Shown here in pieces: positions 3,284-54,587 of a DNA stretch of 64,000 nucleotides; position 1 is the stretch's first letter; each line of letters starts with the position of its first letter. This stretch comes from Candidatus Latescibacterota bacterium (lineage in GTDB: Bacteria; Krumholzibacteriota; Krumholzibacteriia; WVZY01), in the NCBI GenBank assembly GCA_963791045.1, contig CAWBQK010000005.1, positions 17,484-81,483 of the forward strand, given 5' to 3'. The notes below the pieces were generated by a model, which saw only the letters and a list, made by a program, of their open reading frames with translations, did not search any database and was not told the DNA's origin. Position numbers and translations under genes: made by a program.

Positions 3284-4357
3284 TTAGACGGCTTCGGCCG
3301 GTTTTTCCGCCTCGTCCGTATTTTCCGGAGTGTCTATTACTTCCGTTGTCTCTGTTTTTGGCTCCTCAGGCTTATCCTTCCCGGCGCCGCCGAGAATTCC
3401 TTCCACATCCATGCCAAGATGCAGACCCATGCCGTTGAGGATCTCACCGATTTCTTTCAAACTCTGCTTGCCAAAATTCCTGTACTTGAGCATGTCCTGC
3501 TCACTGCGGCGAACGAGTTCACCGAGAAACTTAATGTTGGCGCGACGCAGACAGTTGCTGGAACGAACCGAAAGTTCGAGTTCTTCGACACTGCGGCTGA
3601 GAAGCTCTTTGAGTTTTTCGAGTTCTTCATCAACTACTTCGTCGACTTCTTCCATCGGCTCTTCATCAAAGTGGATAAAGAGAATCATGTGGTCCTTGAC
3701 AATTTTTGCCGCGAACCCAAGAGCGTCTTCCGGTGTTACGCTTCCGTCGGTCCCGATATCGAGAACGAGCTTGTCGTAGTCGGTACGCTGACCGACACGT
3801 GTGTTCTCGACTCTGTACGACACCTTGCGGATCGGCGAGAAGTTCGAGTCCACAGGGATGAGACCTATGTCGAAATCATCCAGATTGTGGGCTTCGGCCG
3901 GCACATACCCGCGGCCATGACCGATCAGGATCTGCATTTCGACCTTCGTTTTTTCCGTGGCCGTGCAAATCACAAGATCCTTGTTCTTGATTTCGATATC
4001 GCTGATCTCTTCGATATCAGCCGCCGTGATCTCGCCTTCCTTCTCTACGTTGAGAGTAAGGAACATCGGCTCATCGGTGTGCATGACGACAACGAGCTGC
4101 TTGAGATTGAGGATAATGTCGGTAACATCCTCGAAAACTCCCGGGATGTTGCTGAGCTCGTGAAGCACACCTGTCATGCGGACGGCCGTTACCCCGGCGC
4201 CCTGGATCGACGACAATAACGTCCGGCGCAGAGCGTTTCCGATCGTTTGCCCGAAGCCTCTTTCGAGAGGTTCAATGACAAAGCTACCGCCAGAGACGGT
4301 AGCCGCCTGTGCGTCCTTGGTTATTTCCTTTGGCATCAATAAATTACGCCACTTCAT
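3284..4357 (-). CDS. rpoA: RNA polymerase subunit alpha
   Basis: EPLERGFGQTIGNALRRTLLSS; LELSVRSSNCL; RNFGKQSL. Confidence 0.98.
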   Translation of the reverse strand: MKWRNLLMPKEITKDAQAATVSGGSFVIEPLERGFGQTIGNALRRTLLSSIQGAGVTAVRMTGVLHELSNIPGVFEDVTDIILNLKQLVVVMHTDEPMFLTLNVEKEGEITAADIEEISDIEIKNKDLVICTATEKTKVEMQILIGHGRGYVPAEAHNLDDFDIGLIPVDSNFSPIRKVSYRVENTRVGQRTDYDKLVLDIGTDGSVTPEDALGFAAKIVKDHMILFIHFDEEPMEEVDEVVDEELEKLKELLSRSVEELELSVRSSNCLRRANIKFLGELVRRSEQDMLKYRNFGKQSLKEIGEILNGMGLHLGMDVEGILGGAGKDKPEEPKTETTEVIDTPENTDEAEKPAEAV

Positions 4358-4391
4358 CTTATACGCGCCTCCTCATGGAGCTACTTTGCGA

Positions 4392-5021
4392 CTATTTCGA
4401 GTAAAGCTCGACGACCATCTGTTCGTCCATCGGGACGGGTATCGCTTCTCTGGATGGAATCTCGAGTAATTCGCCTACCATCTTATTCGCGTCGATATCC
4501 AGGTAAGGAACCACCGACCGGCTGTCGAGATTCTTCATGCTTTCCTGAATCATAAAGAGCTGCTTGCTCTTGTCGCGCGGACCGATTCGGTCGCCAGGCG
4601 AAACCAGGAAACTCGGGATGTTTACCTTGGTTCCGTTGACCTGGAAATGACTGTGGCGAATGAGCTGGCGTGCCATGGCACGCGATGCACAGAAACCCAT
4701 CCGATAAACGATGTTGTCAAGCCTGCGCTCGAGCAGCTGAAGCAAGTTGGTACCAGTGATACCTTTCTGCTGGGCCGCTTTCACGAAATAGTTGTGGAAC
4801 TGTGCTTCCAGAAGTCCGTACATCCGCCGGATCTTCTGCTTTTCCCGCAACTGGATGTTGTATTTTGACGGTTTACCTCTACGCCGGCGGCCGTGCTGTC
4901 CGGGAGGATAATCGCGTTTTTCGATGGCACATTTGTTCGAAAAACAGCGGTCTCCCTTGAGAAAGAGCTTGGTGCCTTCGCGCCGGCAAAGCTTACATTT
5001 TGCGTCTCTATATCTCGCCAT
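4392..5021 (-). CDS. rpsD: 30S ribosomal protein S4
   Basis: [27 protein letters not shown]. Confidence 0.98.
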
Positions 5022-5053: not shown

Positions 5054-5446
5054 TTATACTCTACGCCTTTTCTTCTGACGGACGCCGTTGTGAGGGACAG
5101 GGGTGACGTCCTTGACACCCGTCACTTCGAGACCCGCCGACTTGAGCGAGCGGATCGCGGCCTCACGACCGGCACCGGGGCCTTTTATCCAGGCTTCGAC
5201 TTTTCTCATGCCCATATCCATAACTTCGCGGGCACAACGGTCGGCGGCCTGCTGCGCGGCAAACGGGGTGCTCTTCCGCGAGCCCTTGAAACCCATGGTT
5301 CCCGGACTGGCCCAAGAAACGACGTTGCCGTTCAAATCCGTGATCGTAATGATCGTGTTATTAAACGTCGACTTGATGTGGGCTACGCCCGCGACGTCTA
5401 CCTTTCTTGCTTTCTTCTTCTTTGGTGTTCTTTTGGGTTTAGCCAA
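5054..5446 (-). CDS. rpsK: 30S ribosomal protein S11
   Basis: [29 protein letters not shown] start after AGGAGG. Confidence 0.97.
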
Positions 5447-5506
5447 AATACCCTCCTGATTCACTCCATGCGACTAGCGCACGTTGTGTACGTCAACAGC
5501 CCGTCA

Positions 5507-5881
5507 CTATTTCTTCTTCTTACCCGCGCCCGGACGTGCCTTCGGACCTTTACGCGTACGCGCATTGGTGCTCGTCCTCTGCCCCCTGCACGGGAGACCT
5601 CTTTTGTGACGCTGTCCCCTGTAGCAATTGATCTCCATCAAACGTTTGATGTTATCCCGCACCTCACCACGCAGCGACCCTTCAACCTTATAATCATTCT
5701 CGAGAATGTTACGAATCTTGATCGTATCTTCCTCGGTGAGATCTTTCACCCGCCGAGTCGGATCGAGACCCGTCTTCTCGCAGATATTCCGGGCGGACGT
5801 ACGCCCGACCCCGAAGATATACGTGAGGCTGATCTCAAGACACTTGTCGTTTGGAATATCAACACCTGCGATACGTGCCAC
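5507..5881 (-). CDS. rpsM: 30S ribosomal protein S13
   Basis: [24 protein letters not shown]. Confidence 0.98.
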
Positions 5882-5912
5882 CGATCATTCTCCTTTCAAA
5901 ACCGTCCGGCTC

Positions 5913-6026
5913 TTAACCCTGACGTTGTTTGTGCCGTTTGTTCTTACAAATTACGCGTACGACACCCTTGCGCCGGACTATCTTGCAATGTGAACACATT
6001 TTTTTGACTGAGCTTCTTACTTTCAT
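5913..6026 (-). CDS. rpmJ: 50S ribosomal protein L36
   Basis: Manual translation [37 protein letters not shown] (below ORF-track cutoff). Confidence 0.97.
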
Positions 6027-6050
6027 AGGAATCTTCCTTTAACGGATTCT

Positions 6051-6269
6051 CTACTTGTACCTGTAAACGATCCGTCCCTTTGTCAAATCATATGGGGACA
6101 GTTCAATGGTCACGCGATCACCGGGGAGAATCTTGATAAAATGCATTCTCATCTTTCCCGAAACGTGAGCCAGCACGACATGCTTGTTTTCCAGTTCAAC
6201 ACGAAACATCGTGTTGGGTAGTGCTTCGAGGACCGTGCCTTCGACTGATATCCCTTGTTCCTTGGCCAC
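6051..6269 (-). CDS. infA: translation initiation factor IF-1
   Basis: [37 protein letters not shown] start. Confidence 0.97.
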
Positions 6270-6302
6270 CAGGTTGCGCCAATCCTTTCTCTTGATACTC
6301 AC

Positions 6303-7046
6303 TCAGCGAGTGAGGATCTCGGGTCCGTCTTTTGTGATCGCTATCGTATCCTCGAAATGAGCCGAATATTCTTTGTCCGCCGTCACAACCGTCCACCCAT
6401 CCGAGAGCGTAAAGACATCGCTCCGTCCAACATTGACCATCGGCTCGATCGCTATAACAAGTCCTTCTCTAAGCTCCGGGCCTTGCGCCGGAGGACCGAA
6501 ATTCGGCACCTGCGGCTCCTCGTGCATCCTCTGCCCAATCCCATGCCCGACAAGCGATTTCACTACCGAGAATCCGTGATCGAGAACAAAACTCTCGACG
6601 GCGTGTGAAATGTCACTCAGCCGGTTTCCCACCCGGGCCTTATCTATCGCTTTTTCCAGCGACGAACGGGTGACATCGAGAAGGGTTTCGGTCCCTTCAG
6701 TGATCTTTCCGACGGGATACGTTCGCGCCGCATCGGCGTAATAAGAGTTCTTGAAAACCCCTATGTCGATCCCGCAGATATCTCCGTCTTCCAGAACACG
6801 CTCATTCGGTATCCCGTGGACGACTTCTTCGTTAACCGAGATACATGTCGCGGCCGGATACCCGTGAAATCCTTTAAAAGCCGCTTTTGCTCCGGCCTTC
6901 TCAATGATTTTCTCTACCGCGGCGTCGATGTCTTTCTTTATTACTCCGGGCTTCACGAACTCGGAGAGCATTTCAAAACAGTTTTTGAGAATCGCCCCGT
7001 TTCGCTTCATGATCGCAATTTCGGAGGGCGATTTCAGATAAATCAT
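6303..7046 (-). CDS. map: methionine aminopeptidase type I
   Basis: CISVNEEVVHGIP; GHGIG..HEEP; SAHFEDT. Confidence 0.97.
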   Translation of the reverse strand: MIYLKSPSEIAIMKRNGAILKNCFEMLSEFVKPGVIKKDIDAAVEKIIEKAGAKAAFKGFHGYPAATCISVNEEVVHGIPNERVLEDGDICGIDIGVFKNSYYADAARTYPVGKITEGTETLLDVTRSSLEKAIDKARVGNRLSDISHAVESFVLDHGFSVVKSLVGHGIGQRMHEEPQVPNFGPPAQGPELREGLVIAIEPMVNVGRSDVFTLSDGWTVVTADKEYSAHFEDTIAITKDGPEILTR

Positions 7047-7696
7047 AAGTCGATCAATCCCGATAAAGCGGCGGTCACATCGTCGATCGGCTTTGAACCA
7101 TCCACACGATGGACGCTGTACCTGCCGTCATAGAGCCCCAAAATCGGCAGCGTTTCGCTGTCGTAAACATCGAGTCGTTTTTTTATCGTCTCCGGCTTGT
7201 CGTCATCACGAAGAATCAACTCGCCGCCACAGGCGTCACATTTACCTTCCGTTGCCGGCGGCTTGCTCACCAGGTGATAAACCGCTTTGCAAGACAAGCA
7301 CGTACGACGGTTCGACAAACGTTTGACGATTGCCTCGGGGTCGATCTCGATATAAATAACCGCGTCTATCTTTTCGCCGGCCTCCGAAAGCACCTCTTCG
7401 AGCGCCTCGGCCTGGGCGAGGTTCCGCGGGTACCCATCGAGTATCCAACCGTTGTACTGGGACCGCTTGTCGGTGTCGGTGAGCGTCTCTTTCAACAGAG
7501 CGAGAACGATTTCATCCGACACAAGCTGGCCCGACGCCATAATGCTTTCAACCTGCTCGCCGATCGGTGACTTGCTCGCAACGGCGTCACGAAGCAGATC
7601 GCCGGTTGAAACGTGCTGAACATTGGACTTCTCGGCGATTAAAGACGCCTGTGTTCCCTTGCCCGAGCCGGGAGCACCAAGAATCACAAAGTTCAT
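7043..7696 (-). CDS. adk: adenylate kinase
   Basis: GAPGSGKGTQA; LDGYPR; zinc LID cysteines. Confidence 0.97.
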   Translation of the reverse strand: MNFVILGAPGSGKGTQASLIAEKSNVQHVSTGDLLRDAVASKSPIGEQVESIMASGQLVSDEIVLALLKETLTDTDKRSQYNGWILDGYPRNLAQAEALEEVLSEAGEKIDAVIYIEIDPEAIVKRLSNRRTCLSCKAVYHLVSKPPATEGKCDACGGELILRDDDKPETIKKRLDVYDSETLPILGLYDGRYSVHRVDGSKPIDDVTAALSGLIDL

Positions 7697-9007
7697 CTAA
7701 CGTCGCCCCCGCAGCTTGCCGTGTTTCGTAAAGCCATCGTAGTGCCGCATTAACAAGTGCGACTCGAGCTGGCGAAGCGTATCGAGAACAACACCGACAA
7801 CGATCAGGAGACCCGTTCCACCAAAATAGAACGGTGCGTTTGCTTTCGAAATCAGAACGTCGGGCAGAACCGCGATAAACGCGAGGAAGCAAGCTCCCGG
7901 AAACGTAATTCGCGTCAAAACCCGATCGATAAACTCGGCGGTTCTCTTGCCCGGTCGAATGCCGGGAATAAACCCGCCTGATTTCTTCATATTGTCGGCG
8001 ACATCAACCGGGTTGAAGACGATCGCCGTATAGAAGTACGTAAAGAATATAATGATAACCGAATACAAGACCATGTGCACCACGTGCCCCGGTGTCAGAA
8101 TCATCGCGATGCTCTGCATAAACGACAGATCTTTGAAAAACGCTGCGATCGTTCCGGGGAACATGATGATCGACTGCGCGAAAATGATCGGGATAACGCC
8201 GGCGATATTGACGCCGAGAGGAATGTGGCTCGCCTGGCCACCGTAGATCTTGCGACCCACGACTCGCTTGGCATATTGGACAGGGATCCTCCGCTGCCCC
8301 TGCGTTACGAGAATAATCCCCGCAATAACACCGACCATTATGATCATTAGAATCAAGAGCTTGAACGGGGAGAGCTGTCCGATCGACACGGCCCTGTACG
8401 TGTTGAGCGCGTCAATCGGGTAACGGGCGATAATCCCGATTGTAATAATGAGCGAGATCCCGTTACCAATTCCCCGTTCGGAAATTTGTTCGCCAAGCCA
8501 CATCACAAACACGGTACCCGCGGTAAGTGTCAGAATCGTAATGATCCGGAATCCCCACCCGGGAGCGGTGACGGCAAGATCTCCACCCGGACCGCGAAGG
8601 CTCTCGAGGAAGATCGCGATACCCGTCGCCTGGACACCGGCGAGAACCACCGTGCCGTAACGCGTGTACTGGGTGATCTTCTTCCGGCCTTCTTCGCCTT
8701 CCTTCGCGAGCTTCTCGAAATAAGGCATAACAGCCTGGAAGAGCTGAAGGATAATCGATGCACTAATGTACGGCATGATACCGAGCGCAAAGATCGTCGC
8801 CTTCTCGAGGTTACCGCCCGCAAAAAGGTCGTAAAGACCGAGGATCGTACCCTGTTTTCCCTGGAAGAACGCCGTCAACACCGACGGATCCACGCCAGGA
8901 GTTGTGATATGCCCACCGACTCGGTAGACCACAAGAAGCGCCAGCGTGAAAAGAACCCGCCGCTTCAGTTCGGGAATACTAAAAATTTCCTGAATTTTTG
9001 AAATCAT
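7697..9007 (-). CDS. secY: preprotein translocase SecY
   Basis: IFALGIMPYISASII; GIGNGISLII; GGFIPGIRPG. Confidence 0.98.
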   Translation of the reverse strand: MISKIQEIFSIPELKRRVLFTLALLVVYRVGGHITTPGVDPSVLTAFFQGKQGTILGLYDLFAGGNLEKATIFALGIMPYISASIILQLFQAVMPYFEKLAKEGEEGRKKITQYTRYGTVVLAGVQATGIAIFLESLRGPGGDLAVTAPGWGFRIITILTLTAGTVFVMWLGEQISERGIGNGISLIITIGIIARYPIDALNTYRAVSIGQLSPFKLLILMIIMVGVIAGIILVTQGQRRIPVQYAKRVVGRKIYGGQASHIPLGVNIAGVIPIIFAQSIIMFPGTIAAFFKDLSFMQSIAMILTPGHVVHMVLYSVIIIFFTYFYTAIVFNPVDVADNMKKSGGFIPGIRPGKRTAEFIDRVLTRITFPGACFLAFIAVLPDVLISKANAPFYFGGTGLLIVVGVVLDTLRQLESHLLMRHYDGFTKHGKLRGRR

Positions 9008-9022
9008 TTGTCAAAGAACGAA

Positions 9023-9471
9023 TCACGATCCAATGATTCGGATCTCGCCTCCTGCCTTTTCCACGAGTTCCCTTGCCTTCTTCGTGCACGCGTGAACTTC
9101 GATCTTGAGCGGCTCGATTGATCTCGCCCGATCCAAGAAGTTTCACCGGCATCCCTTTTTTGTTGATCAGACCCGCCTCACGAAGACCGTCCACACCCAC
9201 ACCCGCGTCGGCAGGGAAACGCTCAAGGTCCTTCACATTCACAATCTGGTACTCAACCCGGAAAATATTGTGAAATCCACGCTTGGGAACACGCCTCTGG
9301 AGCGGCATCTGTCCGCCTTCGAACCACGGACGCCTGGTGCTGCCCGAGCGGCATCGCTGTCCCTTGTGGCCTTTACAAGCGGTTTTACCGTGTCCGGAGC
9401 CGGCGCCGCAGCCAATCCGTTTTCTTTTTTTCTTCGCCCCTGTTGCCGGGCTTCAGGTCGCCGAGTTTCAT
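9023..9471 (-). CDS. rplO: 50S ribosomal protein L15 (frameshifted in assembly)
   Basis: MKLGDLKP..., FEGGQMPLQRRVPKRGF, VKLLGSGEI spread over several frames. Confidence 0.93.
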
Positions 9472-9666
9472 TCGTCGGCCGCCTTTGCTTCCTCCACCTT
9501 CACGAGATGATGTACCTGCGTGAAGCATCCCACGAAGTTGCGGTGTGTCCTCTTTAATCAACGATTGTTGGTTGCGCTGAAATCCGATCGCCTTCATCGT
9601 CCGCTTATGCTTCGGAAGACTGCCGATCAGACTCCTCACTTGCGTTACTTTGAGCTTCTTTGCCAT
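9468..9666 (-). CDS. rpmD: 50S ribosomal protein L30 (frameshift near 9530)
   Basis: [15 protein letters not shown]...DTPQLRGML + VHHLVKVEE. Confidence 0.93.
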
Positions 9667-10217
9667 GGTCCTTATCCTCGATACTGAACAGTTTGTTTAC
9701 TGAAATTCCTCTTCTTTTGGCGACATCCTTCGCGCTCTCGAGCTGTCTCAAGCCCTCCATCGTCGCCTTCACCACGTTGTGCGGGTTGTTAGACCCGAGC
9801 GACTTGGCGAGGATGTCACGTATGCCCGCCGATTCCATAATCGCGCGGACCGGGCCACCGGCAATAACTCCAGTACCCGGCGAGGCGGGCTTGAGAATCA
9901 CGTGACCCGCGCCGTACTTGCCTCTGACCGTAAAGGGGATGGTGCCCCCGAGTAAGGGGAAGCTTGACCATCGAACGTCTTGCGGTTTCCGTCGCCTTAC
10001 GGATGGCATCGATGATTTCGTTGGCTTTACCCAGACCGACACCAACACGGCCCTTTCCATCACCGGCTGCAACGATTGCGTTGAAGCTGAACCGCCGTCC
10101 ACCCTTGACAACCTTCGCAACGCGGTTGATGTGAATGGTCTGTTCGATAAATTCCGGTTCGTTCGATTTGCCGTCGAACCTTCGGTCCTGCCGTCTCCCT
10201 TGCGAACTGTGAGCCAT
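9605..10217 (-). CDS. rpsE: 30S ribosomal protein S5 (frameshift near 9958)
   Basis: [16 protein letters not shown] + [16 protein letters not shown]. Confidence 0.95.
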
Positions 10218-34946: not shown

Positions 34947-35023
34947 TGGCAGGCCCGGCAGGAATCGAACCTGCAACCCCCGGTTTTGGAGACCGGTGCT
35001 CTGCCTAATTGAGCTACGGACCT
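34947..35023 (-). tRNA. tRNA-Trp(CCA)
   Basis: AGGTCCGTAGCTCAA...CT-CCA-AA...GGTTCGATTCC...CCA. Confidence 0.96.
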
Positions 35024-35142
35024 GCGGATGCTGCCTAACGAGAGCCGATCGTCCCAGCTCCGCAAAAAATGTGTCCACCGTTGTCGGCCTTGCCCTCATC
35101 CCGCGAGGCGAAGAGTCGAGCTCAGCCAACTTTTTCTTCTAC

Positions 35143-36337
<1,195 letters not shown>

Positions 36338-36361
36338 GTGCCTCCCTCCGGAGATTGACGC

Positions 36362-36437
36362 TGGAGCCCTCGACCGGAATCGAACCGGTGACCTTTTGCT
36401 TACCATGCAAATGCTCTACCGACTGAGCTACGAGGGC
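36362..36437 (-). tRNA. tRNA-Thr(GGT)
   Basis: GCCCTCGTAGCTCAG...AT-GGT-AA...GGTTCGATTCC...CCA. Confidence 0.96.
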
Positions 36438-36492
36438 GAAACACAGTATTTCGAATGAGTAACACTTACAACAAACCAACTAACAAAAAAAA

Positions 36493-36569
36493 TGGAGCGG
36501 GAAACGGGATTCGAACCCGCGACTCTCAGCTTGGAAGGCTGATGCTCTAGCCAGCTGAGCTATTCCCGC
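36493..36569 (-). tRNA. tRNA-Gly(TCC)
   Basis: GCGGGAATAGCTCAG...CT-TCC-AA...GGTTCGAATCC...CCA. Confidence 0.96.
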
Positions 36570-36589
36570 CCACCGTAATTGCAAAAAAG

Positions 36590-36674
36590 TGGTGGGGAGG
36601 GGAGGATTTGAACCTCCGAAGGCTTCGCCGACAGATTTACAGTCTGTTCCCTTTGACCACTCGGGAACCTCCCC
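36590..36674 (-). tRNA. tRNA-Tyr(GTA)
   Basis: GGGGAGGTTCCCGAG...CT-GTA-AA, long variable arm, CCA. Confidence 0.96.
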
Positions 36675-36847
36675 GGCACTTGTCTACCGCAATCCAATCA
36701 AACGGAAAGAGACACAAAAACCCAGCGACTTTAAAGCCGTGGGGTATCGTATCCCTCCACTTACAATTTGGTGCTTTTAAACTAATTGAAGAGAGATTAT
36801 AAAAACAGCCCGCTCGGTTTTTATATCAGGCTCTATCGCTCAAATTT

Positions 36848-36922
36848 TGGAGCTGGCGAAGGGACTTGAACCCCCAACATCCTCATTACAAATGAGGTGC
36901 TCTACCATTGAGCTACGCCAGC
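36848..36922 (-). tRNA. tRNA-Thr(TGT)
   Basis: GCTGGCGTAGCTCAA...TT-TGT-AA...GGTTCAAGTCC...CCA. Confidence 0.96.
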
Positions 36923-52082: not shown

Positions 52083-52139
52083 TGGTAAATCCTAAAATCA
52101 TAAGGACTTAATACTTTTTGCCCGTTGGCGAGTTCGTCT

Positions 52140-53651
52140 ATGAACCATTTGCTCCTCTACCTTTTCGTCCAATCGATCGCCTCCCGGATTGCCGGGCGGC
52201 GGATTGGCGGCGTGCGTCTGCTCCAGCCCGTTCTCTCGATTGAGCTTGCCGGCGGGGGGCCGCCGGACTATCTGGTCGTAATCCTCTCCTCCCCCGGGCC
52301 CTTCTGTTTTTTGGAAAGCAATGACCCGCTTGCCGGTATCGGCGCCGAAGCGTTCAAGAGGATCGTGGGCCTCCAGGTCGGCCGAGTCCCGGGGGCGGCC
52401 GACGACCGCATCCTGCGTATGGATCTCACCGGCGGCCGGGAACCCGACTCACTCGCGATTTATCTTTTTGGAAGCACCGCGAAGGTCCGTGTCGAACGGG
52501 GCGAGGCCATCATCGAATCGCTCGACATACGAGAAACCGGTCAGGCGCTCCGCCCGGGACGTGCCCCCGGCGCGCCCGTCTTCACCGTGGACGGAAGCGC
52601 TATCGAGAACGACGCCTTGAGGGAATTTCACGAGGGGCTCATCGATGGACGCGTGCCCTTCGGGCTCGCCGCCGCGAAAAGAGTCGGCGGGGCCGCTCCC
52701 GTTCCCGCTGTTGCCGGCGATTTCATGTTCGGACCATTCGATGATGCCACGACCGCGTGCCGTGAAGTAGGGGCGGCGATTGTCGCATCCCTCTACGACG
52801 ACATTGTCGCCCACGCGACGGCAACCTTGAGAAAGCATCTCGCGGCCCGGGAGCAGCTTCTCGTCAAACTCGAAGGGGAACGCGAGGGAGCCGAATCCTT
52901 CGAGGATCTCCGGAACCAGGCCAACACGCTCGCTGCGTATCAATCGCAGATTGCGCCCGGGGCATCCGAGGCGACTCTCCCGGCCCTTTACGGGGACGGC
53001 GCCGAGGTCGTGATCGAACTTGATCCGGCGCACTCTATCCGCGAACAGATCGACAAACGTTTCAAGCGGGCGGCAAAGCTCGAAAGAAGCCGCGAGGCGC
53101 TCGACAACCGGATACATTCAATCGCGACCGAGATCGCCGGACTCAGCGCCGACATGGCCACAATCGATGAACAGACGACACTGCGCGGGGCCGTCGAGTC
53201 CGCCGAACGGGCCGAGCGGAAGTATGACTTCGGGGCGCGAAAACGCCGGACGGTGAAACGCGTCCAGCAGGTCAAAGAGTATCGGCGGTTTGACCTCGAC
53301 GATCAGTGGTTCGCGCTCGTCGGACGTAACGACCGCGAGAACGATGAAATCACATTCAGGGTCGCCGCGCCGGACGATCTCTGGCTCCACGCCCAACAGA
53401 TGCCCGGTTCCCACGTCGTCCTCAAATCCCACGGCTCGCCGGGAAATCCCCCCGACGCGATTCTCGAGAAGGCCGCGGCGATCGCCGCGCACTTTTCGAA
53501 AGCCCGGCACGCTTCTCTCGTCCCCGTCATTTATACCCGCCGGAAATATGTCCGCAAATTCAGAGGCTCGAAGCCCGGGCAGGTGCTGTGCGAGCGGGAG
53601 AAAACCGTCTTCGCCGTCCCCGGCCTTCCCGACTCACCCAAGAAAAACTAG
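52140..53651 (+). CDS. NFACT / RqcH (FbpA)-like ribosome quality-control protein
   Basis: DRIL, coiled coil, VGRNDRENDEIT, DLWLHA..PGSHV, KYVRK..KPGQV. Confidence 0.88.
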   Translation: MNHLLLYLFVQSIASRIAGRRIGGVRLLQPVLSIELAGGGPPDYLVVILSSPGPFCFLESNDPLAGIGAEAFKRIVGLQVGRVPGAADDRILRMDLTGGREPDSLAIYLFGSTAKVRVERGEAIIESLDIRETGQALRPGRAPGAPVFTVDGSAIENDALREFHEGLIDGRVPFGLAAAKRVGGAAPVPAVAGDFMFGPFDDATTACREVGAAIVASLYDDIVAHATATLRKHLAAREQLLVKLEGEREGAESFEDLRNQANTLAAYQSQIAPGASEATLPALYGDGAEVVIELDPAHSIREQIDKRFKRAAKLERSREALDNRIHSIATEIAGLSADMATIDEQTTLRGAVESAERAERKYDFGARKRRTVKRVQQVKEYRRFDLDDQWFALVGRNDRENDEITFRVAAPDDLWLHAQQMPGSHVVLKSHGSPGNPPDAILEKAAAIAAHFSKARHASLVPVIYTRRKYVRKFRGSKPGQVLCEREKTVFAVPGLPDSPKKN

Positions 53652-53699: not shown

Positions 53700-53730
53700 C
53701 AAAAAAGAACCGCCCCTGTTGGGGCGGTCC
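53700..53730 (-). terminator. intrinsic terminator (minus strand)
   Basis: GGACCGCCCC-AACA-GGGGCGGTTC-TTTTTT. Confidence 0.85.
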
Positions 53731-54040
53731 AGCAATCCGATTCCCGGTCAGAGACTCGGCGGACACAAGAAGAGGCACGCTGCAACCCGCGCCCCTTCTC
53801 GTGTCAAGGAGGGCAATACACCAGCGGAATCAAGCTAAGGGCAAGGGCTATGATTCACTGGCCTGACGAGCCACTCAGGGGAAGGCGTCAAACACACGGG
53901 GTGCCTGATGACCTATTCGATAGAGCCTTGGCGTAGCCAGATGCATTACCCCCTCTTTGCCACCGAGTGTTCCCTCTTCCTGTGATCCGAAAACTCTCGG
54001 AGCACATACCACTCCAGGGCAAAGCCCAGGGAATGACAAT
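53700..54040 (-). ncRNA. putative sigma54-dependent structured small RNA (or small-peptide mRNA)
   Basis: Bounded by -24/-12 promoter and terminator; 18-bp stem with three G-U pairs at 53762-53805; only 23-39 codon ORFs inside. Confidence 0.5.
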
Positions 54041-54050
54041 CCCTGTACGC

Positions 54051-54066
54051 GCAACTATTATGCCAA
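54051..54066 (-). promoter_or_regulatory. sigma54 (-24/-12) promoter
   Basis: TTGGCATAATAGTTGC matches TGGCA-N6-TTGC spacing. Confidence 0.75.
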
Positions 54067-54090
54067 AAGGGGCGCCTGGTGGCGCCCCTT
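54065..54090 (-). terminator. hairpin/terminator after the 126-aa secreted protein gene
   Basis: AAGGGGCGCC-ACCA-GGCGCCCCTT-TT. Confidence 0.6.
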
Positions 54091-54174
54091 CGGTACTACA
54101 AAACTCTGTAGAAATTAAGCTTAGCAACTGCTGCTAAAAACGGACCGAGAAAATCAGGGGAAACCTCTCGGAGC

Positions 54175-54193
54175 GCGTAAAATAATTTTACGC
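54175..54193. promoter_or_regulatory. palindromic candidate upstream activator site
   Basis: GCGTAAAAT-A-ATTTTACGC perfect 9-1-9, ~140 bp upstream of predicted sigma54 TSS. Confidence 0.55.
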
Positions 54194-54206
54194 TTGTTAA
54201 TAATTC

Positions 54207-54587
54207 TTACTTCTCGGTGAATCCACCTTCGGTCAGCACGATCCCTGTCCACTCTTCGGCCGGCGGATCTCCCTCATAAATGATCTCGTCTCCTTCTTCC
54301 CAATAGATCTGGAGAGTCTGACCGGGAGCGGGCGACACGCCGGTTCGATGAGACGGGCCCGTTTTTACGGTGATTTTGATCTCGGTCCAGCTGATCGTCT
54401 CAAACTTAACCGACAGCTTGACCGGTGTCGTGATTACGAAGGTCTGCCCCGCGTAGTCGACGTTCATCACACCGGGAAATACGGCAACCGTTTTTGGTAC
54501 AGGTAGTTGCTGAGCTGTGAGGATGCCTGGAAGAACCAGGGCTACCACCAGAAGCAAGGCAAGCATATTTCTAGAAACAGGTCTCAT
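54207..54587 (-). CDS. hypothetical secreted protein
   Basis: Strong SD (GAGGGGG), Sec signal peptide (LTA|QQ), beta-rich mature region. Confidence 0.75.
   Translation of the reverse strand: MRPVSRNMLALLLVVALVLPGILTAQQLPVPKTVAVFPGVMNVDYAGQTFVITTPVKLSVKFETISWTEIKITVKTGPSHRTGVSPAPGQTLQIYWEEGDEIIYEGDPPAEEWTGIVLTEGGFTEK

Follow-up and report, generated by a model that had tools for sequence, protein, structure and literature searches.

What does the 555-nucleotide (nt) gap encode that lies between two convergent genes of a Candidatus Latescibacterota bacterium (assembly GCA_963791045.1, hereafter the source genome; the 64,000 nt analysed, contig CAWBQK010000005.1 positions 17,484 to 81,483, are called the window)? 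The gap, read on the minus strand, is bounded by a 126-amino-acid (aa) open reading frame (ORF) and by a convergent NFACT gene (52125..53651), and an initial annotation made from the sequence had described it as a complete sigma-54 transcription unit for a candidate novel structured RNA of ~340 nt. We find that it holds a real, previously unnamed non-coding RNA gene that is kept in every searched genome of one order of uncultured Krumholzibacteria, and we consider below by what this gene is likely to be controlled and on what its RNA may act.

A structured RNA gene of one order

A BLAST search with the interval identified the RNA in 35/35 relatives, which make up two families of one order, and in none of five genomes of other families; at the scale of the phylum all 35 genomes of the order matched, as against one weak 32-nt match (E 0.0066) among 172 others. 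A covariance model of the RNA core, which for the phylum search was run with stricter Infernal filters, recovered 26/26 sampled genomes of the order and 0/124 other genomes of the phylum. An exact scan of species-representative genomes for the 21-mer at the heart of the RNA (see below) gave 34 loci, all in metagenome-assembled genomes, with titles that named Candidatus Krumholzibacteriia, Latescibacterota or Latescibacteria, uncultured bacterium and, once, Chitinivibrionia. Removal of duplicates left 35 unique loci, 32 of them complete. The gene is present as a single copy per genome, and its synteny with the 126-aa ORF on one side and the convergent NFACT gene on the other is retained in nearly all loci, the gene immediately upstream being always the 126-aa ORF. 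The interval had been taken for an NFACT-selB intergenic region; the NFACT flank stands, but selB lies one gene beyond the 126-aa ORF and is not a direct neighbour of the gap.

The RNA belongs to no family that we could identify. A search of the whole window against Rfam 15 at the gathering score returned five tRNAs only, none of them at the RNA locus, and with E-values of up to 10 admitted there were only sub-threshold terminator look-alikes (RF02278, 26.8 bits against a cut-off of 50), the weak matches falling on the second terminator at 53701..53730. Neither Qrr, GlmY/GlmZ, CrcZ nor any other Rfam covariance model matched the RNA, which agrees with the initial view that it resembles no tRNA, tmRNA, RNase P or SRP RNA. 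A divergent housekeeping RNA was ruled out: 6S, RNase P, SRP RNA and tmRNA were all found elsewhere in the source genome, above their family cut-offs. No frameshifted or conserved protein filling the interval was found, and a literature search found no paper on a small RNA (sRNA) of Krumholzibacteriota or Latescibacteria.

Secondary structure and conserved motifs

The fold of the minus strand reaches -156.3 kcal/mol (z -5.7, equalled by 0/100 shuffles), and the plus-strand fold has a z of -2.4. RNAalifold, applied to an alignment of 32 sequences (A1), gave a consensus consisting of a 13-bp long-range helix, a small GGC...GCC hairpin, an invariant hairpin and a terminator hairpin (Table 1); the 5' third, with two hairpins whose sequences differ between the families and which MAFFT aligned poorly, was left out of pair scoring. 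On the minus strand 94.4% of 1118 cells were paired, against 39–45% when the partners were slid by 1–3 columns and 86.2% on the opposite strand; 21/35 pairs change on both sides, and none of 500 shuffles equalled the alignment in pairing, in covariation score or in its counts of double changes. The covariation that had been proposed as a check is thus present in the stems: both sides change in 11 of the 13 pairs of the long-range helix, 9/10 scored pairs of the 18-bp hairpin covary, and the invariant hairpin has 99.6% of its stem cells paired (32 sequences). Because G-U cells (112) far exceed A-C cells (21), we assign the structure to the minus strand, as the initial annotation had done from the three imperfect pairs of the 18-bp stem. 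A third helix, CGGUGG/CCGCUG, had support in the closest relatives only and is not claimed.

The most conserved part is the invariant hairpin, of which a 21-mer (53854..53834) is identical in 35/35 unique loci containing it, these loci having been collected in part with the 21-mer itself. Its 11-nt pyrimidine loop, CCUUGCCCUUA, is our proposed seed, and a further pyrimidine-rich motif, GCCUUCCCCUGAG, is possibly a second one. The pyrimidine-rich stretches, earlier remarked upon for their likeness to anti-Shine-Dalgarno sequences, are the best conserved parts of the RNA, one of them forming the invariant loop itself.

Because a U-run follows the 18-bp stem in most relatives, this stem is the intrinsic terminator of the RNA family there. 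Here the U-run is poor and a second terminator follows; the stem is read through in this species, since contigs from RNA libraries cross it and extend to 53731–53749, which makes the proposed length of ~340 nt reasonable for this genome.

A conserved sigma-54 promoter with enhancer sites

Read along the minus strand, the gap contains enhancer site A, enhancer site B, a G+C-rich hairpin with a T-run, a sigma-54 promoter, ~340 nt of RNA and a terminator. The promoter has canonical GG/GC spacing, and the two GTAA-N7-TTAC palindromes lie ~127–146 nt upstream of its -24 GG; the initial annotation had correctly placed the promoter, the hairpin and site B, and had overlooked site A. A GG-N10-GC element occurs at the homologous place and distance in 32/32 complete loci, 30 of them being of the TGGCAY, TGGTAT or TGGAAT types. 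At least one GTNA-N7-TNAC palindrome is found 108–148 nt upstream of the -24 GG in every complete locus (32/32), and in 20/32 these upstream activating sequences (UAS) are in tandem with a spacing of 19–20 bp. The source genome also has rpoN, whose presence the initial annotation had proposed to confirm (Sigma54_DBD at 220 bits, in a 483-aa open frame on contig C15). From these motifs, transcription would start near 54040 and would depend on sigma-54 and on an enhancer-binding protein (EBP). The G+C-rich hairpin probably terminates the 126-aa ORF and shields the promoter of the sRNA from read-through; in the alignment, judged by eye, inverted repeats of other sequence occupy the same place in several relatives.

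Presence in RNA libraries

The stretch is present in RNA libraries of several studies, and contigs from four were examined. Four whole contigs (215–294 nt, one from each of the four studies; Table 1) all lie inside 53731–54028 and leave the NFACT gene uncovered. X18 has one further contig (484 nt, 51 mismatches), which extends over the 126-aa ORF from 54170 on without joining the RNA, and the smaller pieces X1 record 2 and X16 record 4 continue into unlike sequence, as expected of relatives. The RNA is present in these libraries as a discrete unit; a lack of contigs over the flanks does not show that the flanks are silent. A promoter kept in 32/32 loci, covarying stems, rpoN and the library contigs together support the initial proposal of a sigma-54-controlled regulatory sRNA.

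Table 1. Features of the gap and its surroundings, and contigs from RNA libraries that match it (positions in the window)
Feature	Positions	Strand	Sequence and remarks
126-aa ORF	54587..54207	minus	signal-peptide-like N-terminus; secreted; stop codon overlapped by enhancer site A
Enhancer (UAS) site A	54210..54196	minus	GTAAGAATTATTAAC; GTAA-N7-TTAC type; overlaps stop codon of 126-aa ORF
Enhancer (UAS) site B	54193..54175	minus	GCGTAAAATTATTTTACGC; perfect palindrome
Upstream G+C-rich hairpin	54088..54065	minus	GGGGCGCC-ACCA-GGCGCCCC + TTTT; directly 5' of -24 element
Sigma-54 promoter	54066..54051	minus	TTGGCATAATAGTTGC (TGGCAT-N5-TTGC); -24 GG 54064-54063, -12 GC 54052-54051; canonical spacing
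Non-coding RNA	53701..54040	minus	~340 nt in this genome; ~265-280 nt in most relatives
CAGGAAG motif	53976..53982	minus	3' of second 5' hairpin; A1 columns C58 G60 G61 A62 A63 G64 invariant, A59 near-invariant
Long-range helix, 5' strand	53955..53943	minus	GAGGGGGUAAUGC; pairs with 53819..53807
Pyrimidine-rich motif	53874..53886	minus	GCCUUCCCCUGAG; near-invariant columns in alignments A1/A2; unpaired in consensus structure
Invariant hairpin	53856..53827	minus	GAAUCA-U-AGC[CCUUGCCCUUA]GCU-UGAUUC; 11-nt pyrimidine loop 53846..53836, proposed seed
Long-range helix, 3' strand	53819..53807	minus	GUAUUGCCCUCCU
18-bp hairpin	53805..53788 with 53779..53762	minus	three non-Watson-Crick pairs, all G-U
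Second intrinsic terminator	53701..53730 (stem 53730..53707)	minus	GGACCGCCCC-AACA-GGGGCGGUUC + UUUUUU; 10 pairs, 8 G-C
Contig X1	53736-54028		294 nt; depth 42; 1 mismatch
Contig X16	53778-54005		228 nt; depth 39
Contig X17	53731-53945		215 nt; depth 49
Contig X18	53749-54024		276 nt; depth 14.5

The 126-aa ORF had no match in Pfam or NCBIfam. Elsewhere in the window a cluster of five tRNA genes lies at 34950–36922 on the minus strand.

A candidate activator

The tandem palindrome pattern occurs once in the source genome, at the sRNA. A stricter pattern for a single palindrome had three other matches, the best of which, GACGCGTAAAAATATTTTACGTC, lies 50–66 nt upstream of the ATG of a gene encoding a 1544-aa EBP; because the genome has 17 strong EBP genes, its position at this gene is unlikely to be chance. 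The protein has a TPR/MalT-like region (~705–990), a Sigma54_activat domain (1221–1387) and a weak Fis-type helix-turn-helix (1519–1540), and no Pfam domain was identified in its N-terminal 640 residues. With its first 700 residues as query it was found in 33/35 genomes of the order and in 0/5 outside, the two genomes of the order that gave no match being 65% and 86% complete. All 16 orthologues with a mapped N-terminus have the sequence GTAAAAT-N3-(A)TTTTAC 32–122 nt upstream of their start, and in 10/16 the palindrome is doubled, 17–18 bp apart, typically as TGGTAAAAT, which on our own reading may double as an extended -10 box. These shared sites make the 1544-aa EBP the likely activator of the sRNA; the protein would repress its own sigma-70 promoter, where the palindrome lies over the extended -10, and would switch on the promoter of the sRNA.

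The EBP gene (L132, G000:C6:157000-171000, ORF 5099-9733(-)) is located between a gene for a CT398-like C4 zinc-ribbon protein (9860-10204(-)) and a NIF3/DUF34 gene (3998-4846(-)). The Pfam match of the zinc-ribbon gene is weak (24.2 bits, cut-off 29.1), and the C-terminus ...CENCGRILYF of the gene upstream of the EBP gene is retained beside it in many relatives. CT398/HP0958 proteins bind sigma-54. In addition, the ribosome-binding region of the EBP mRNA in the source genome, UGAGGGCAA-AUG (L132 ~9735-9750, minus strand), can make nine pairs with the sRNA loop UUGCCCUUA, which would give a feedback like that between Qrr and LuxO; the match was not retained in the EBP orthologues examined.

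A candidate target

We scanned both strands of the source genome for duplexes with the 19-nt loop region, in 50-nt windows prefiltered for two GGG. After the antisense of the RNA itself the best duplex was at C13:106234 (-30.8 kcal/mol), a site in the leader of the mRNA for a secreted protein of 223 aa that we call p227, ~15 nt downstream of TATGCTATAAT and ~150 nt upstream of the coding sequence. At the same place genus g6 has a perfect 13-mer complement behind TATGGTATAAT. A wobble-tolerant 14-mer, YTRRGGGYRRGGGY, had 93 matches in 36 genomes of the order, of which 36 were the RNA gene itself; four of the 57 non-self matches fall 145–160 nt upstream of the best p227 homologue, in G000, G004, G005 and G011 (three genera), and G010 and G012 have imperfect versions of the site at the same place. 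A TGnTATAAT box lies no more than ~25 nt from where the sites in p227 leaders begin. G004 has a G in place of each of the four A's of the site and retains 18 consecutive pairs via G-U. Overall, 9/30 p227 leaders reach -27 kcal/mol or lower, as against 1% of 1000 random 360-mers. Homologs of p227 were found in 33/35 genomes of the order and in 1/5 outside it.

On these matches, we put the pairing of the loop and its flanks, with G-U tolerated, to the first ~30 nt of the long p227 leader a little below an even chance, and p227 would probably be one target among others. The protein itself offers few clues: it has no Pfam or NCBIfam family and is not similar to the 126-aa ORF; its predicted structure (pLDDT 88.2) is a beta-sandwich, and when Foldseek compared the model with the PDB no match had an E of 0.001 or lower, RhoGDI-like beta-sandwiches (TM ~0.25) coming closest. 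An Rfam search of the genus-g6 leaders likewise found no match. In the second family the p227 leaders (L112-L129) open with a conserved YGCAACGAGUUGUGGGGGGAAGUGGGCC, right after TGTTATAAT/TGTTATACT, and the partner of this leader start may be the GCCUUCCCCUGAG motif instead of the loop.

Several other candidates were tried and rejected. The exact 13-mer complement is not usable as a target finder, second sites being no commoner than those of the reversed control. The site at 2495628 of G010 is antisense to a Trm112-like 5' untranslated region (UTR), and the wobble matches in the second family were treated as chance, eight of the nine inspected being inside unrelated open frames and one being intergenic without homology to the others. 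The match at C11:314743 is a same-sense identity within another sigma-54 promoter, TGGCATGCCCCTTGC (C11:314741-314757, minus strand), which is flanked by the gene for an M20-like peptidase and the divergent gene for a XylR-like EBP; this promoter and the sRNA loop have 14 bases, CCCTTGCCCTTAGC, in common, probably by chance.

Weighing the explanations

On balance we think it probable that the product of the interval is a stand-alone, structured regulatory RNA that acts in trans and is made only when a specific EBP activates sigma-54 RNA polymerase. We propose that the 1544-aa EBP would bind the GTAA-N7-TTAC sites and activate the sigma-54 promoter; that the sRNA would present its invariant loop for pairing; that this loop would pair with the extreme 5' leader of the strongly sigma-70-transcribed mRNA of p227, a secreted beta-sandwich protein of ~225 aa; and that the p227 mRNA would thereby be altered in stability or in translation, in either direction. 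A bolder version, which we regard as speculative and rather doubtful, is an order-specific three-tier circuit, in which an EBP with essentially one sigma-54 target, the RNA, would let the loop seize the extreme 5' ends of the leaders of strongly transcribed mRNAs for secreted beta-sandwich proteins, and probably of other mRNAs, the RNA thereby acting as a post-transcriptional master switch where CsrA was not found in 35 genomes and Hfq was not found in the source genome.

A number of observations weigh against parts of this proposal. With respect to transcription, the dependence on sigma-54 and an EBP is read from motifs; only 12/32 loci have a strict Integration Host Factor (IHF)-like core, the window lacks one, and no IHF site is claimed; the number of strong EBP genes in the source genome counts against the assignment of the sRNA to one particular EBP; and the library contigs, which bear out the metatranscriptome check in being confined to the unit, give neither the strand nor the true ends of the RNA. 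With respect to pairing, Hfq was not found in the source genome (81% complete). Strong complementarity to the p227 leader is limited to one family, where six genomes from four genera show it (G000, G004, G005, G010, G011 and G012), and the loop duplexes of the other family mostly lie between -20 and -25 kcal/mol, close to the mean of the controls (-19.0, standard deviation 3.0). Duplexes of the full-length RNA with the leaders had z near 0 in most genomes (most of the other family and part of the first), no better than shuffled leaders; the reversed control gave as many single-genome pattern matches or more; and the fold of the p227 leader is unremarkable (z -0.46), with no switch suggested. 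Lastly, the loop is invariant and the p227 site varies, which argues that the p227 mRNA is not the sole constraint on the loop and perhaps not the main one; the invariance suggests further targets or a protein partner.

This last point is also what most favours the main rival explanation, which we hold to be unlikely, although less so than any of the others: that the RNA is a protein decoy or sponge like GlmY or CrcZ, its invariant hairpin, CAGGAAG and CU-rich motifs titrating an RNA-binding protein, with the match to p227 incidental. A 21-nt stem-loop identical in 35 loci would be accounted for, as would an RNA whose length and degree of structure are high for a pairing sRNA, and several sigma-54-dependent sRNAs, GlmY and CrcZ among them, act on proteins. 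Against a decoy, the site in the p227 leader recurs at the same place in four genera, identified in three of them by the exact wobble pattern and in the other by duplex energy, and it ranked first genome-wide; the RNA has a single CAGGAAG and no array of repeats; and Hfq was not found in the source genome, nor CsrA in any of the 35 genomes of the order. A CsrA sponge in particular, which would have many GGA motifs in loops and a CsrA in the genome, was ruled out. CsrA was found in 4/5 searched genomes of other families of the class, so that the distributions of CsrA and of the RNA are complementary in what is a small and phylogenetically dependent sample.

The remaining explanations are far less probable than a decoy. 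Position between two convergent genes, and synteny with both in nearly all loci, are what would be expected if the interval were, instead of an independent gene, a long 3' UTR or a terminator region belonging to the 126-aa ORF or to the NFACT gene; this is very unlikely, however, as a terminator-like hairpin separates the 126-aa ORF from the promoter, the sigma-54 promoter and UAS are present in 32/32 loci, the RNA contigs end at 54005–54028 without joining the upstream ORF, and the G-U pairs exclude the NFACT strand. At least as improbable is a dual-function or purely coding transcript with a 39-aa or 23-aa ORF as its product. Both ORFs exist and have purine-rich stretches upstream, and the initial annotation had allowed for a dual function, but their start codons are kept in 13/32 and 10/32 relatives, respectively, their counterparts range from 9 to 83 codons and encode unrelated peptides, the most conserved stretch is identical at every codon position, and conservation tracks base pairs. 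Finally, the RNA might mimic promoter DNA and bind the sigma-54 holoenzyme in the manner of 6S RNA, to which we give just as little credence. The loop sequence CCCUUGCCCUUAGC does reproduce 14 nt across the -12 element of the C11 promoter described above, and the candidate activator gene adjoins the CT398-like zinc-ribbon gene; yet this is a single coincidence, for which the 13-mer control pattern was equally frequent, the hairpin lacks a -24 GG, the RNA's own promoter is unlike the loop, and the C11 site is not conserved in relatives.

Comparison with known systems and implications

The RNA is a new family of a known kind of module, comprising an EBP, sigma-54 and an sRNA, and is comparable to LuxO-Qrr1-5 of Vibrio (Qrr, RF00378). 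In that system, as described in PMC4878744, PMC3730234 and 10.1101/2021.07.01.450815, the main output of the EBP is a sigma-54-transcribed sRNA that pairs with mRNA leaders, the activator is autoregulated, and the UAS, -24/-12 promoter and intrinsic terminator stand in the same arrangement; for our RNA the pairing and the autoregulation are proposed from sequence. The differences are considerable: there is no match to Qrr in sequence or structure, Qrr is ~100 nt as compared with ~270–340 nt, LuxO is a response regulator whereas the EBP is a 1544-aa TPR protein, no Hfq was found in the source genome, and the RNA is single copy per genome.

In the GlrR(QseF)-GlmY system of Enterobacteriaceae, too, a sigma-54 promoter with tandem upstream EBP sites drives a stand-alone structured sRNA; GlmY acts without pairing, as a protein decoy for RapZ, and the RNA described here differs from it in having no Rfam match and no strict IHF-like core in the window. 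CrcZ of Pseudomonas, which is ~400 nt long and dependent on sigma-54 and CbrB, is a second long RNA with palindromic UAS half-sites (GTAAC/GTTAC). CrcZ titrates Hfq/Crc via A-rich motifs, whereas our RNA is pyrimidine- and G-rich and comes from a genome in which Hfq was not found. The position of the proposed p227 site, within the first ~30 nt of a long leader and far from the start codon, resembles pairing of the FasX-ska and RoxS-yflS type, and C-rich seed loops are known in RoxS/RsaE, although our RNA has no homology with FasX or RoxS. What is new here is the proposal of the 1544-aa EBP as the likely activator of this RNA and of p227 as a likely target, both inferred from the genomes.

To our knowledge, hardly any regulatory RNAs are known from phyla that have not been cultured. 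Here an RNA together with its likely activator and likely target could be read from genomes alone, in an uncultured phylum of sediment and soil, and the result is a testable circuit that would lead from a sensor protein through a sigma-54 sRNA to a secreted protein. The RNA adds a new family for Rfam, and its 21-nt invariant hairpin is a precise marker for the order in metagenomes and metatranscriptomes. It also exemplifies control by an sRNA in a lineage in which searches found neither Hfq (in the source genome) nor CsrA (in 35 genomes).

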